Assembly: GCF_013167455.1 (NCBI RefSeq)
Contig: NZ_CP038328.1
Direction: 5' to 3' (one strand)
Length of the DNA stretch: 64,000 bases
DNA from: Escherichia coli O157:H7
Lineage (GTDB): Bacteria > Pseudomonadota > Gammaproteobacteria > Enterobacterales > Enterobacteriaceae
Made by a program: the position numbers
Shown: positions 24,001-30,000 of the stretch, one piece after another
Layout of the letters: each line of letters opens with the position of its first letter
How positions within the stretch are numbered: position 1 is the first letter of the stretch

Positions 24001-27000
24001 GAGGCTGGTAATATCCACGCCAGTTCGCTGGAGAATAATTTCTGGTGTCATGACACGGCCTCGCTGTTATTTTCCGTGGTGGCGTGAATTTTCGCTTCCG
24101 CCGTGGCCTTGTTTCTGGCAGCTTTCTTTTTGACAAAATCAAGCGTTTTGACAGCTTCTTCCTGAGAGAGAGCTTCATGTGATGCAATCGTGCGACGGAA
24201 TGTTTTGGAACATACGGGAAGCAGGTCATCCCATGTCTTGTTAATTTCGGTGATTGCCTGAGTGATCTCATTGATAATCTCATCTGATGCGGGAGTGACG
24301 TCACGCTCAGGGATATGATCAGCATTCAGGATGATACCTTCACCGGCCTGAGTGTTCAGGTAGTCGATAGCTGTATCCAGGCGATCGCGACGGGGCCAGT
24401 ATTTGCTGGCGCGCTTAACAATGGCTTTTCTGGCCATTTCATCGGGGAAACTATCCCACGGGCTACTTCCTCCGTTATTTCCGGCTTTGCTGCACGCCCT
24501 GATGACCTCGATTTCCCTGTTGCTCATCTCTTCGGTCAGATAGTCGCCTTCGGATGTTTTTACGACACAATAACCGCCAATGCGTGCGCCCCTGTCTACG
24601 AAGGGGTTGTATTTGTGCGTGGGGGCGCAGTCAATACCGTTGGACTCGTAAATGTCCTTCTCGTAAACAAGTTTGCATTGCCCCCACTGAATGGCTCCTG
24701 TGACCTGTGCCAGATGCAGAAGCCCCATATAACTGATATCCAGGCATACAGCCTTTTTTCGTGGGACCAGATACGCCAGCTTGCTGGCCGGGTTCAGGGT
24801 TATGCCGATGGCGGCAACATTGATGATAGCGTTCTGTGCGCTGGGCAGATTTGCCCTTGCTGTGTCAGCCAGAAAGGCATTTTTCTGGAATTGCTGAATT
24901 GCAAACTGACTTTCCTTCGCCCATGTCAGCGTCGGTTCAGTTAATGCCTCGCAGAAAAAGCGCTCCTGCTGCTTAACAAATTCAACGATATCGAACATTT
25001 TTTGGTCCTGAAAATCAGAAAGGACAGGGGGAGAATTTTCTCTCCCATTCTTCTTCCGCCCGAGCATAGGCGATCGCTGAGATATAATCGTTGTACGCCT
25101 CTTCAGCTTTTTCGCCAGTGAGTGCTAGTTGGGCTTCTTTGGGTAAAAAAAGGCTGCTCATAAGCAATGGTTTATCGGGGAACATGCTGATAAGCTCCTG
25201 CGCCCGATCATCAATCCATTTATCCTTTTCATCCTGAATTTGCTGATTAATCCAGCGACGCTCCTCTATGCGGTCGCAGGTGAGGTATGCGTTCATGGCG
25301 GAACTCCTGATTCCGGTTAATGCATTAAATTAATTTGTCGGGAAAGCTGACATACAGGGCAGTTACATTCTTCCTCCTGCTCCTTAGCGAAGAAATATGC
25401 AGCGGCCTGTAATGCGATGTCTTCTGGATGTTCCGCGATAAACATAACATTGCCTTCCGTATCAATAACAGAAATAGCCTCATCAGACAGGATGACAAAA
25501 TAGGCGATGATTTTATCATCCATAAAAACTTCTCCCATTATCGTTCCTGCTGGAGTTACGACGCTTTTTACATTGATATTTATTTTTTGATTGAGCATGA
25601 TATTTCCTTTCAGGCTGGTGAGATTAACGGTTGGCCTTTATTGTTCAGGTAAACTTCTATTGCATCTGAGATAATGCGAATTTTTTCAATCAGTGAATGT
25701 GCGTAAAGTGCATTATTAACGTTCGCTGACGCCATGTAATAACGCCCGTTGTAAAGAATTGCTGTGCCGGGTTTAACGTCCTCGCGAGAAACTAATGCGG
25801 TTCCGTAGTGAGGTTTGAGCATGACAAATCCTCCGGTTAATTAATCCAGATATTTTATTTAATCCCCGATATGTGATCGGGGATGGGGTTAATTAAAGAT
25901 TAACGTTGAAACCAAAGCGGGAAGATTTTTCCGATGTGCGGGAAATATCCAGCAATTTACGGCGCATTTCTTCCGTCAGATGCTTGAAGGCGTTAAATTC
26001 GGCGACAGCTGCATCGACGTTATAGCCGTTACGACGTAATTCATTAAATATGCGCATTGCAGGGCTTGGCATGTCGAATAAGACGGAGGTATCAAGCTGC
26101 AATGTATTTCTATCAACATAGTTCATCGTGGCATAGGGGTGATGCTCTGAAAACCACGATAAAGGGAAATTGATATTCATCGCAGGAGAAGACAGGGCCA
26201 GTTGTTTCTGTTCCCATAGTTGTTTTTCCATGCGATCGAATTCAGCAATGTAGGCTTCCTTGAATGCAGCTGCTTTTTTGCCGGTGAAGCCCATCACCAG
26301 AAAAACGAATCCGTTTTTGGTGATTTGGTACATTGGGCGTTGTTCGCCTTTGGCGTCGGTGTAGGTAACGTCCGCAAAATTGCGGGCGTTAAATTCCGTA
26401 GAACAATCCATCAATCGGATTTTTTTTAAAACGTCGTCGTGCCGCTTGTCAAAAAATTCAGCAATAGCAATAGACGTTGTGACAACGCGACCATTGGTAA
26501 TGGTGATTTCAGGTTGAGAAAGGGCAGGGATAGTAGCCATAATGGCAGCCTCCTTGATTGGTGATTGAGAACCACCGCAGGAGGTCCTAAGCTCGCTGGC
26601 GGTGGACTGTACAGGGTTAGGACTACTGGCAATCAAGGGAACCAGCCCGACCGAAGTCGGCCCCATACAGCCCACCATTGATAAGATGTGCGTGTATATC
26701 GATACAAAAAAAGACGCTGGCGCGTCTGTATCGCCTCGATTGTCAGCGGGGTCCTAATCCCGACACCCGTTTTATAAGGTGTTCGCCAAATATAGCCCCC
26801 GACATCACACGCAGTCAATACCGTCCTTTCTCAGAAACGCTTTGGCGGTGCCGCCTGCACCCCAAAACATTCCCTGTATTGGTCAGCGCCAACTTCCTGC
26901 CAGTGTTGCCCGTTCTCACGCCGTTCTCGCTCTCGCGCGGGGATACTCTCTCATCGACCGGATCGCACCCGATGATACAGCACGTTTACGTGTAGGGGTC

Positions 27001-30000
27001 TAAACAGGTCATTGACGCTGTAAAGCTCCAGGTTGTTAAAGAGCATTTTGCGGCGGGTTAAGTCGCGCCGTACGACTGATTTATGTAGCCCTGTGTAAGG
27101 GCGCGATGTTTCTGGCTTGAAAGAAATATAACTTGCGGTGATTTTTATGTAAATACCGTTAGTGGTTATTGGGGGTGAAAAAATATTACTTAACTGATTT
27201 TTAAAGTGATTTATTTTTTAAGGGGACAGATAACAGGAGGGGATATGCAAAGAAAAACCCGGCGCATGGGCCGGGCTATTTATCTGGTCCTGTTCTCATT
27301 CAGTAGAGTAGGGGCCAAGAAATCGCACTCCGTTGAAGTGAATAAGATGAGAAGGTGCATCAGCCACCCATACCTCTGTTTCCCATGCGATTTCACCAAG
27401 ATATCGCCCCATGATGGAGCGATTTGGAAAAGCGGTCACATAGACAAGTCCGGCTGTTGATCCGGCAAACAGCCTGGCAAGCTCAGCATGCCGCTTCCCA
27501 TCAACCGGTCCATGACTGGTGACAGACTCAACCAGTAGCAGCCAGTTTTTCGCAGTAAAATGTAGCACCACATCTGGCATTTTACCGTGTGAATCCACAT
27601 CAACACCTAGCCCGGCCAGCAGTGGAGCGTCGAAGTAGCCCCACTTTTCGCCAGTGTCGCCAGCATAGACCAGCACGCTACCCGGAGCAAAACGTGGGGC
27701 GAAGTCCTCTATTATGGCACGGATAAGTTCGCTGTGCTCGCCGGGACTGAGGGTTATTTGCTGGCCCGCAGCAATTTCAACAGGGATACGATTCTGTTCG
27801 CGCTCCTTAGCATAGCGGGTAACCAGCGTTTCACGCTCGGCTAAATAGGTTGCAAGGCTATCGTGCCATGCCGGGCTGCCGAAAGTGCGTAGCATGGACA
27901 GAGCAGCAGGTTCGATCTGATAAACAGCCTTCGGGCTGTTCACTGGGCGATCGGGCTTGTCCGGATTGTAGAGGGCTACTCCAGCAGCGCAGAACTGATG
28001 CATAGACTGGCGGCGGAATGTCTCACGAGTATTGGGTGCGTAGACCTTGCCGTAGTGCTCCCGAACCCAATTCATGATTGGTGTAATGCCCACAAGCGGA
28101 TTTTCCGCGTCGGCCCATGCTTTTCCCGGTGTGAGGTTCAGGAGTGCCAGCAAACACAAAGCAGAACGCTCATTCTGCTGCGCTCTGGGCAGGCCTAAGG
28201 ATGCTATAATTTGCTGAGCGGCCTCAATATAATCATTTTGGTTGTTCATGCAGTCAGAGCTCCTAGCTTAGCGTCAATATGTTCTTGCGTGAGAGTTTCT
28301 TGTTGCATAGCCCACTTGCCAAGCTCTATCAGAGTGTCACGGCTTGGGTACTTAATCATCTTGAGGTCGGTTGCATTGACCTGTGTATGCCCGTTGAAGC
28401 GACGGAAGTACTTATCCACTGCGGTAGTGTTCAGGAACACGGCCAAGCCACGGGCCAGCGCCTCGGGTAACCCATGTTTGTTCTCATGAAACACGTTCAT
28501 GTGATTTTCAAATCCCAACACTGAATACTCACTGAAGGTAGCAGGATCAACGACGCTTGCTACCACTCGGCGCTTTTCCTCCTTCGACGAGAAACGACGC
28601 ACCACACAATAAAAACCGTTCGGGTAAAGCCACTTTTCTGTCTCGTCGTTGCGCATGATTGCGTTGGGTTTCTTCAAACCTTCCACAGGCCAGACAGTGC
28701 TACTCATACTCAAATGGCTCGGGTAGATCAGGGGAACAGTTCCTTCTTCTGGCATGCTGCGCAAATGAGCTTTCAGTCGGAAATCAACTATCGGTCCGGT
28801 CGATACCTTCACGCCAATATCAGCCAGCGAACATTGTACGGCAGATGATAACTCAATGGTGCTTTTCTCGAGCGTGGTCGGCACATGAATAAACCGCTCC
28901 GAATCGTCCGGGTACACAATCTGGTCAAATGGGTGTTCGTAGGTGACCAGGTCAAAAAAGCTATCATCGGTCGAAGTTGTGACTGTAACAGCCTCCTGAC
29001 GGCCTCCACGCTCCAGGCGGATGATAATATTTTCCTGCAACACATCGTCATCCCTGAAAGCTTTGCTACGTGATTCGAACAAATGAATATGGCGGATTGC
29101 TGCCCGCTCAAGTATGAAATTACGGAACGGACGGTAATACGGTCCGTTGCAGAAACTACGTGGGATTATGGCCACTATCTGCCCGCCAGGTGCAACCTCA
29201 CCTACAGCCAGTGCAACAAAGGCGGAATACAGATTTACCGTCTCGATACCGACAGTGCGAAGAGCCTGCCGGTGGGCTGACTGGCTATTGATCTTCTTGT
29301 AAGGCGGATTAAGTATTGCATGGGTATAACCTCGATCCTGTAGACCTTCGGCGGTTGCCAGCTCAATATAATCCCCTTCGATGATGCGGGGCGTCACTCT
29401 CCTGTACCCGGTTAAGTGCTTCGCAAGGTGACCACACAGCTTTTTGTCGATTTCGTAGGCTGTTGCCTCGACAGACTCAAAGCCAAACTCGCCAACCAGC
29501 CAACGGTCGAGGAAGGCGCAAGACAGTGCGCCTAAACCAGCGCCTGCGTCCAGTAGACGGCAAGTTTTCATTGTGCTCGGTGGAAACAAGGAGGCCATAA
29601 AACGGGCCACGCCAGAAGGCGTCATGAACTGGCCGAACTCTGCTTTGTGTTTACGCGCGGTACGGGGAGACAGCTCGCGACGCACGCTGTCTGCGACGTC
29701 TAGCTTTTGAAGCATAACTAATCCTCTTTACGTGGCATGATGATGCCAACGTGCTTTTGACATCCTCCACATTCTTCAGGCGTGAAGGATGTCAAATCAC
29801 TCTGTGAGCTCAATCAAAAGTCTCATCATTCCACTGCGATTTGATGACCTTTCCGACAAACTGGCAGTTTTCGTTACACTCAATCATGTCGAATCGTGGG
29901 TTGAGCGGCTCCAGGTACGCTTTACCGCTCTCACGAATGAATCGTTTGAAGGTAAATTCATCGCCGTTCATTCGGGCCACGCAAAAATCGCCATCCTCGA

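Follow-up and report, generated by a model that had tools for sequence, protein, structure and literature searches.

How does a lambdoid prophage that carries no gene for the antiterminator N express its early-left operon? The question is posed by a 64,000-nucleotide stretch of Escherichia coli O157:H7 DNA (contig NZ_CP038328.1; hereafter the window), a lambdoid Shiga toxin (Stx) prophage. An earlier reading of the sequence alone (the original prediction) had found no N-like open reading frame (ORF) in positions 26541-27295, between a restriction-modification (R-M) pair and the first leftward gene, and had proposed either that N has decayed or that antitermination is RNA-based or otherwise independent of N. 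We find the interval intact and not decayed: it is where the early-left operon of an N-less lambdoid Stx phage begins. The explanation that we favor as a whole, to which we give slightly better than an even chance, is that the interval comprises the promoter pL, a structured leader RNA headed by a boxA, and an IsrK/C4 gate in front of a Rha-family gene. The new part is the boxA-led RNA; the gate is of an already known kind.

The absence of N was examined at several levels. With stops masked, none of the minus-strand frames of 26530-27300 matched the PHROG families phrog_271 (N-like) or phrog_5632 (Nun) in a scan whose positive controls (lambda N, 933W N, and HK022 Nun) all matched. Searches of the whole window by tblastn with lambda N, 933W N, and Nun reached a best E of 0.15, with nothing inside the interval, and the phi80 ‘N’, HK225 gp40, and the N-like protein of Edwardsiella phage Edno5 gave no signal in the window either. 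The claim that N is missing is therefore borne out, also for the rest of the early-left operon, and a frameshifted or decayed N was rejected, as six-frame reading, the masked-frame PHROG scan, and tblastn were all without signal. It was nearly correct that no minus-strand ORF of at least 60 aa occurs here; the exceptions are a 61-aa ORF with a TTG start (26633-26818, minus strand), which overlies the IsrK and C4 RNAs, and an over-extended 261-aa Rha ORF. The gene annotated as ‘N’ in phi80 was rejected as the window’s N, as it belongs to a family of unknown function, lacks an Arg-rich motif, and has no homolog in the window. Literature searches on a missing N in P13374-type phages brought up no discussion of N, nor do the Eru papers treat it.

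The N-less arrangement is widely conserved. The interval matches the Stx2a phage record LC645447 at 100% identity and P13374 (O104:H4), TL-2011c, phi191, PA2, VT2phi_272, and Ss-VASD at about 95%, and it is carried by 125 of 5426 complete E. coli genomes (at least 80% query coverage), in which the PGAP annotation of the interval consists of an over-long Rha protein only. About 100 Stx phage records, phi346 also among them, show the same N-less layout at 95-100% identity. A defective prophage with the remains of an N gene might still be read into two Arg-rich strings in frames without start codons, VVRRDLTRRK and ARERERRENGQHW, and into the lambda boxB stem that survives at 27102-27088. VVRRDLTRRK does lie in an open frame without a start, as had been noticed; it is located upstream of boxA, in a lineage-specific segment of the leader that is not common to phi80-type relatives. 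The string ARERERRENGQHW, however, is simply what the conserved RNA helices yield when translated, none of the frames gives a profile signal for N or Nun, the sequence is under RNA-level constraint, and the same layout recurs in the roughly 100 phage records, which presumably include phages isolated as particles or induced. Decay of N is accordingly very improbable, and the idea that it cripples early expression was abandoned in the face of about 100 near-identical records, 125 genomes, and DNA full of conserved RNA modules.

The new one among these modules is described by two features:

27045-27033, minus strand: boxA, UGCUCUUUAACAA, at the 5′ edge of the folded RNA
27045-26870, minus strand: boxA-led structured leader RNA of about 175 nt, a candidate N-independent antitermination element

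The boxA lies about 70 nt into the predicted pL transcript and is identical to what we take to be the consensus boxA of rrn operons; its exact sequence (also written TGCTCTTTAACAA) has no other exact match in the window. In a sensitive BLAST search, the segment 27180-26790 matched unannotated DNA of phi80, HK225, and Klebsiella phage KO-TP1 at about 94% identity and DNA of Edno5 at 78%. Scanning IMG/VR with an invariant 17-mer yielded about 70 true homologs, and a scan of species-representative genomes added homologs in Enterobacter, Citrobacter, Kluyvera, Huaxiibacter, and Escherichia. These are always on the leftward strand, just past pL or the repressor block, and in every one of them boxA (YGCUYUUUAACAA) is the exact point at which the similarity sets in; it runs for about 175 nt, between unrelated flanks. 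By these boundaries, the RNA is a discrete module. The types have no ORF in common, and the indels in the variable hairpin (4, 7, and 9 nt) include lengths that are not divisible by three. A 31-aa ORF (27046-26951) was rejected as the cause of the conservation, since the diverged ‘type B’ reads ATG AAA CCT GTT TAG, and the conservation extends about 90 nt beyond the stop codon of this ORF.

The fold, obtained with RNAalifold and manual inspection, consists of the following elements, all within the boxA-led RNA on the minus strand:

P1, long-range helix: CAGCGUCAAU/GUUGGCGCUG
P2, helix: CCUGUU/GGCAGG
Further helix: CCC/GGG
P3, hairpin: CACG-UAAA-CGUG
P4, hairpin: UCAUCGG...CCGGUCGAUGA
Variable region with GAGA (GNRA-type) loops

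A covariance model built from this fold (R1) scores 177.6 bits on the window element, and its alignment holds 76 matches, or 72 distinct sequences. Across the latter, 98% of the cells are paired and 10 of the 28 pairs show compensatory changes, values that none of 500 shuffles reached, although these counts lean towards structure because the alignment was fitted to R1 and contains many close relatives. Sliding the partners as a control left pairing at 27-44%. In type A, which includes the window, all ten pairs of P1 are kept in five of seven variant types through wobble-to-Watson-Crick switches, and the other types have GCACAU/AUGUGC, AGCACA/UGUGCU, or AGCACAC/GUGUGCU in this position. A single-sequence fold recovers P1, P2, and P4; it is not unusually stable (z = -1.34, equaled by 15 of 200 shuffles). 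A pairing of boxA with a 3′ AGCG proposed by RNAalifold was not adopted, as it shows one-sided changes only and depends on a misaligned 3′ strand in type A. Overall, we are highly confident that the boxA-led element exists as a structured RNA under selection.

What this RNA does is a separate matter. The reading that we consider first is that its job is processive antitermination without N. The boxA would recruit NusB/S10, and the folded domain would stay with the polymerase, doing the job that N does at nutL or put does in HK022 and HK639. Transcription from pL would then resist the IsrK terminator 390 nt downstream, Rho, and a further terminator located inside the early-left operon, between two genes:

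15855-15837, minus strand: strong intrinsic terminator, CCCCGACATCCCGTCGGGG followed by TTTT

Four lines of evidence suggest such a role. First, the RNA occupies the position of nutL, ahead of both the strong IsrK terminator and the terminator at 15855-15837. Second, the RNA without exception opens with a consensus boxA, which in nut and rrn leaders is the site for NusB/S10. Third, it is a positional alternative to the putL-like RNA of HK639 within one and the same leader. HK639 (L145, 34230-34400, minus strand), phi80 (L008, 2915-3085), and HK225 (L007) share an almost identical pL leader over its first approximately 50 nt; HK639 then has a GenBank-annotated ‘putL-like antiterminator RNA’ that is clearly similar to HK022 putL, and phi80, HK225, and the Stx phages carry the boxA and its RNA in that slot, a clean module swap. 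Fourth, no conserved protein gene follows the element, as a comparison of the proteins encoded downstream across relatives found none conserved, and the phi80 ‘N’ is without an Arg-rich motif. The proposal of RNA-based or N-independent antitermination has therefore gained a concrete candidate in the HK639 putL slot, an element that the original prediction had not picked out; the part of it that invoked a put-like element did not survive, and the function is deduced from context.

Likeness to put deserves separate consideration. As in HK022 and HK639, a non-coding RNA lies just past pL in an N-less lambdoid phage, and as in HK639 there is a single left-hand copy in the same slot behind a homologous 5′ leader (NC_016158 annotation); short GAACGG and CAA(U/C) motifs also recall put. 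Against membership of a diverged element in the HK022 put family, BLAST found no similarity to HK022 putL or putR, and R1 with filters off found nothing in HK022 or HK639. Moreover, the window RNA, with about 175 nt and at least five helices, is 2.5 times longer and has more helices than put, which has about 70 nt and two stem-loops (PMC9378689), and it starts with a boxA, whereas none is visible in the HK022 put regions inspected. Given the BLAST and covariance model results, membership was rejected, and we find it scarcely credible. The consensus boxA at the start of the window RNA implies the participation of Nus factors; put, by contrast, is said to work in the absence of protein factors (PMC9378689). 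Read-through of terminators by put occurs in cis and is blocked by mutations in the beta′ zinc-binding domain.

The RNA might also be a dispensable passenger in an operon that lacks leftward processive antitermination. The early-left genes would then be expressed because the IsrK terminator is leaky to transcription from both pL and the IsrK promoter (PisrK), and control would be exerted by C4 and IsrK only. The window would suit this in having neither N nor a rightward nut or put site. A passenger, however, would not keep 94-97% identity together with compensatory substitutions across unrelated flanks and host genera, and the operon contains a further intrinsic terminator. We consider this explanation quite improbable.

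Several observations weigh against antitermination without N, or against the wider explanation, in addition to the fitted alignment and the ordinary stability of the single-sequence fold. No rightward copy or nutR was detected in the window by blastn, by a boxA search allowing up to two mismatches, by nhmmer, or by R1 (a filters-off R1 scan of 29700-46000 gave a best score of 12 bits, inside stx1A), and with a single leftward copy per phage, antitermination in the pR operon is left unexplained. In Edno5 (L012, 3280-3504) and in a second relative (L054, 9160-9381), a protein annotated as hypothetical is N-like (phrog_271, 1e-10), and its gene lies about 650 nt downstream of the boxA-led RNA; since such phages pair the RNA with a true N-like protein, the RNA could be an elaborate, protein-dependent nutL. 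An Arg-rich 97-aa protein co-occurs with two diverged versions of the RNA. Baniulyte et al. are said to have found that boxA/Nus complexes can repress too, as at suhB. As to novelty, Rfam 15 has no family covering the RNA, which says little because Rfam is also without a family for HK022 put; the RNA is uncatalogued, and an earlier description may exist in the literature. Finally, the antirepressor-type role of Rha within the wider explanation is presumed from family names.

A rival explanation is that the RNA is an enlarged nutL that needs an unrecognized trans-acting phage protein in place of N. Besides Edno5 and L054, where the RNA occurs together with a genuine N-like protein, a canonical boxA with boxB is found in Edno5 (L012, 640-760, minus strand) and in three further loci (L017, 5343-5390; L058, 2395-2442; L060, 3753-3706), which implies an RNA-binding antiterminator in the group. 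These sites are on the rightward strand only, with a boxB of GCGCC-GAUACA-GGCGC in Edno5 and of GGCUGA-GUAA-UCAGCC in the phi80-type loci; the left operons of these four have the boxA-led RNA instead, and a search of the leftward strand for the Edno5 nutR boxB did not find it. This fits a division of labor between the RNA, acting on the left operon, and N, acting on the right one. A N-like gene in the rightward operon is known from mEp021-type phages (PMC11893012). In the window, the possible partner is

30853-31146, plus strand: 97-aa protein in the cII position, of phrog_852 (unknown function), with an internal Arg-rich FRKGNRARRSANTRLRVYVQKYARASRG

This protein contains RKGNRARRSANTRLR, and homologs with 46% identity adjoin cro in phages with a diverged boxA-led RNA, including the type B form. 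Its Arg-rich stretch is internal, however, whereas known N and Nun have an N-terminal one, and it shows no Pfam, NCBIfam, or N-family signal, which also counts against a protein partner; it may be an RNA-binding partner or be unrelated. In addition, RNAs that are 94-97% identical occur in phages without a common nearby protein: phrog_852 is missing from phi80-type loci, and neither the phi80 ‘N’ nor the Edno5 N occurs in the Stx type. We regard a protein-dependent nutL as unlikely on this evidence.

Somewhat less likely still is that the RNA is real but not an antiterminator, acting instead as a Nus-dependent attenuator or repressor, as a processing or stability element, or as a small RNA derived from the pL leader and working in trans. 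Repression by boxA/Nus complexes in the suhB case is the reported precedent for the first of these. The single copy per phage, the unremarkable thermodynamic stability, and the presence in the same operon of C4, a leader-derived RNA acting in trans, would all be compatible with such roles. They have to be set against the slot shared with the putL-like RNA of HK639 in a homologous leader, the nutL position ahead of two intrinsic terminators, the fact that boxA is the exact 5′ boundary of the module, and the lack of a terminator within the 3′ end of the RNA.

Weighing the single copy, the N and boxA/boxB sites of Edno5, and the 97-aa protein, we place N-independent antitermination as the job of the boxA-led RNA at about even chances. 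The more specific proposal of a new signal class, in which a consensus boxA and a folded domain of about 160 nt work with host Nus factors and without N, we advance tentatively, as somewhat less probable than that. If true, phi80-like phages and the Stx lineage that includes the O104:H4 outbreak phage would be using a third solution, next to N/nut and put.

Such a signal would share features with two established systems. Like lambda nutL, the window RNA lies between pL and the first leftward gene, with a boxA and a hairpin that has the boxB stem. It differs in that the window has no N protein and no nutR, in that its boxA is the full rrn consensus whereas that of lambda is CGCUCUUA, and in that the boxB-like hairpin stands upstream of boxA with a UACAC loop, while long-range helices occupy about 160 nt after boxA. 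With the rrn leaders (boxB-boxA-boxC, with NusB/S10, NusA, NusG, SuhB, and S4) it shares an identical boxA, hairpins upstream, and by nature no need for an N protein. We know of no counterpart in rrn leaders to a large conserved RNA domain after boxA. In addition, rrn antitermination acts mainly on Rho-dependent terminators, whereas the window has an intrinsic terminator next.

The transcript in question would start from a promoter in the 5′ part of the interval, where the following features are found:

27277-27256, minus strand: intrinsic terminator of the cI-methylase-endonuclease (pRM-type) operon, stem AGCCCGGCCCATGCGCCGGGTT (8 bp, 6 GC), then TTTCTTTGCA
27169-27152, minus strand: second, weaker operator-like site, ATAACCACTAACGGTATT, overlapping the -35 of pL; read from the sequence
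27153-27125, minus strand: pL, with -35 TTTACA (27153-27148), a 17-nt spacer, and -10 TATATT (27130-27125)
27143-27127, minus strand: oL1-like operator, AATCACCGCAAGTTATA, overlapping the pL -10
27102-27088, minus strand: leader hairpin GCCCU-UACAC-AGGGC, stem identical to that of lambda boxB

The promoter matches the consensus at 10 of 12 positions, its transcript start is predicted near 27117, and it resembles lambda pL (ggtgTTGACAtaaatacc in lambda, ggtaTTTACAtaaaaatc in the window). The heteroimmune phage F039 has TTGACT-17-TATATT at this position, immediately before the same leader and with different operators, and in HK225 and phi80 pL/O-L is annotated at the corresponding place. The operator AATCACCGCAAGTTATA is two mismatches from a perfect palindrome in the cI-cro spacer, TATCACCTTTGGTTATA (30528-30544), in line with the lambda-like half-sites noticed near 27136-27168. 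The promoter match, the match to the cI-cro palindrome, the likeness to lambda pL, and the F039 promoter together indicate that the placement of pL/oL is right, and the expectation of finding both within 26680-27295 was confirmed at about 27125-27170. The second site, ATAACCACTAACGGTATT, has a right half, GGTTAT, that matches the operator half-site and a poor left half, and is tentatively taken as a second operator.

Upstream of the promoter, the terminator at 27277-27256 lies about 20 nt past the endonuclease stop codon; its hairpin is readable on the plus strand too, and F039 has the same kind of terminator in the same place. Together with the IsrK terminator (stem 26727-26712), it accounts for the two minus-strand terminator hairpins of the original prediction. 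Downstream, the hairpin GCCCU-UACAC-AGGGC occurs once in the window, against 0.07 occurrences expected by chance, and is kept in F039. It lies about 40 nt upstream of boxA and its loop is not GNRA-like (lambda nutL boxB is GCCCTGAAGAAGGGC); it may be what is left of a nutL, or else a boxB of the rrn kind. On the other side of the immunity genes, the segment 31279-31316 (38 nt) resembles positions 27081-27115 of the pL leader, with 82% similarity. It lies in a non-coding gap of about 200 nt after the 97-aa gene (31147-31353, plus strand) that contains G-rich runs.

The remainder of the interval is taken up by the IsrK/C4 gate:

26818-26789, minus strand: IsrK/C4/Rha promoter, TTGACT-18-TATATT, with its predicted start at the 5′ end of Rfam isrK (26782)
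26782-26707, minus strand: IsrK-like RNA (Rfam RF01394, 61.7 bits against a gathering threshold of 50)
26757-26751, minus strand: a1, UUAGGAC, a C4 target copy within IsrK
26742-26733, minus strand: b1, CAAUCGAGGC, a C4 target copy within IsrK
26727-26712, minus strand: stem of the IsrK terminator, 6 bp, then T7
26682-26595, minus strand: C4 antisense RNA (RF01695, 78.9 bits against a gathering threshold of 45, E 8e-15, model positions 1-87 of 87)
26639-26630, minus strand: C4 loop b′, CCCUUGAUUG
26623-26617, minus strand: C4 loop a′, GUCCUAA
26590-26584, minus strand: C4 target a2 in the Rha leader, UUAGGAC
26560-26551, minus strand: C4 target b2 in the Rha leader, CAAUCAAGGA
25893-26540, minus strand: Rha-family gene, the first leftward gene, with likely start AUG 26540

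The structured leader at 26541-26700 is real, as had been supposed; it is not put- or nut-like, being the C4 RNA followed by the a2/b2 targets that gate Rha translation. Perfect complements of a′ are found 75 nt upstream of C4, where the second IsrK hairpin has its loop, and again 5 nt past C4; those of b′ lie 60 nt before and 35 nt after it, the latter (b2) overlapping the Shine-Dalgarno (SD) sequence AAGGAGG (26555-26549). A match to c4-a1b1 (RF03163) overlaps isrK and is weak (18.5 bits, with a gathering threshold of 46.7). Loops and targets co-vary across four heterologous versions, namely the window, the P1-like JL22, Stx1_14040, and phi419: a2 lies 4-5 nt after C4 in all four, and b2 lies 34-35 nt after C4 over the ribosome-binding site (RBS) in three. 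The complement scan was complete for the window and phi419 and missed b2 in JL22 and a1 in Stx1_14040; by eye, JL22 has a GCAAAAGG match over the SD, and Stx1_14040 has UCGCAG in the IsrK hairpin loop. Both RNAs are already annotated at the same coordinates in GenBank LC710660, as ‘isrK Hfq binding RNA’ (ncRNA) and ‘C4 antisense RNA’, and modules of about 70% identity precede annotated Ant genes in other Stx phages. No LexA box was seen by eye at the IsrK promoter.

The gated gene encodes a protein with the Pfam domain Phage_pRha (PF09669, 2e-30) that also scores 107.8 bits against TIGR02681 (cutoff 45.95) and matches PHROG transcriptional-regulator and anti-repressor families. Its first codons, MATIP, are common to Rha and the genes after C4 in JL22 and Stx1_14040. 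Two in-frame AUGs inside C4 (26678 and 26666) give rise to the 261-aa ORF annotated in public records (P13374 ORF29, PGAP), and phrog_29966, phrog_6928, and phrog_3960 match the translated C4 region; the longer start looks like a propagated annotation artifact, or else like an upstream frame comparable to orf45.

The module is that of P1 immI and of Gifsy-1 IsrK, and very probably works as these do. Its C4 loop and target layout is what we take to be the architecture that defines P1/P7 immI. With P1/P7 immI (C4-icd-ant) it shares a full-length C4, the downstream a2/b2 over the RBS, and the upstream a1/b1, and with P1-like JL22 the co-variation of loops and targets and a gated gene that starts with MATIP. 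It differs from P1/P7 in having no separate icd ORF, the leader running straight into the Rha gene, and from P1 in lying inside a lambdoid early-left operon under a cI-controlled pL and not in a P1 plasmid prophage. P1 immI is subject to RNase P processing and Rho-dependent polarity.

The Gifsy-1 isrK-orf45-anrP locus, as far as it is covered by the sections of PMC4825925 drawn on here, offers the other parallel. There, the PisrK promoter was shown experimentally, the terminator is partly read through, the resulting long RNA is translationally silent, and IsrK, which is reported to bind Hfq and to trans-activate downstream translation, raises translation of the antirepressor 139-fold when supplied in trans (PMC4825925). 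The window locus likewise has its own promoter, a terminated IsrK, a segment of about 80-90 nt with two in-frame AUGs, and an antirepressor-type gene that would be untranslated by default. As described in those sections, Gifsy-1 differs in that its intervening ORF ends at an AUGA overlap, whereas that of the window is fused in frame to Rha, and in that it adjoins a Q-like gene, whereas the window locus adjoins pL; C4, for which the window has a clear match, is not mentioned for Gifsy-1 there (PMC4825925).

By analogy with P1, Gifsy-1, lambda, and HK022, the switch might operate as follows. In the lysogen, cI would shut pL, and PisrK would yield IsrK and, by read-through, C4, whose a′ and b′ loops would pair with a2 and b2 and mask the Rha RBS, so that Rha would go untranslated and polarity would possibly damp the downstream genes. 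The a1/b1 decoys of IsrK could titrate C4 or remodel the leader, as for Gifsy-1 IsrK. Once the repressor is lost, pL would fire, and the boxA-led RNA with Nus factors would carry the polymerase past the IsrK terminator; the surplus of leader and IsrK might then outcompete C4, allowing expression of Rha and of the recombination and kil genes. The timing and dynamics of these steps are proposed on the same analogies.

The surroundings of the interval conform to a lambdoid early region:

27296-28249, minus strand: endonuclease of the R-M pair
28246-29715, minus strand: BsuBI/PstI-type methylase
29810-30523, minus strand: lambda-cI-type S24 repressor (phrog_4)
Start at 30583, plus strand: cro-type gene

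This order bears out the view that the R-M pair occupies the position of rex, and beyond the Rha gene the early-left order is Kil, a Gam-like gene, RecT, and Exo. The layout varies among relatives at several points. F039-type variants (L136, 185-1035) differ in their operators and have two additional genes separating the endonuclease from pL, and PA2/phi346-type variants (L001, phi346, 4423-4536) have an insertion of about 105 bp between the leader RNA and the IsrK promoter. P13374 (L002, 2536-3367) has an extra 930 bp or so between Rha and kil that the window lacks; the ‘ORF26 antitermination’ of this insert is an anti-repressor paralog (phrog_1760) with the C-terminal domain of Rha, and was rejected as a hidden N, being such a paralog and not in the window. 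About 6 kb to the right of cI, positions 36700-36820 or so (plus strand) read as stx1A coding sequence (SSYTTLQRVAGISRTGMQINRHS). An stx1A cassette next to an early region that is 100% identical to a Stx2a phage record points to a common regulatory backbone on which toxin cassettes are exchanged in mosaic fashion.

In the lineage described here, the lack of N is a designed feature and not a defect. This N-less Stx lineage includes the O104:H4 and O103:H25 outbreak phages, and control of its early genes matters because Stx is released upon induction of the prophage. The early-left operon is guarded by an antisense RNA that gates an antirepressor-type gene, making C4, IsrK, and Rha targets for induction studies, and the extension of Rha ORFs through the C4 RNA can be flagged as a recurrent error in public records. 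To our knowledge, N/nut and put are the only solutions to early-operon antitermination described in lambdoid phages; a covarying RNA with a consensus boxA in the HK639 putL slot makes a third mechanism directly testable.

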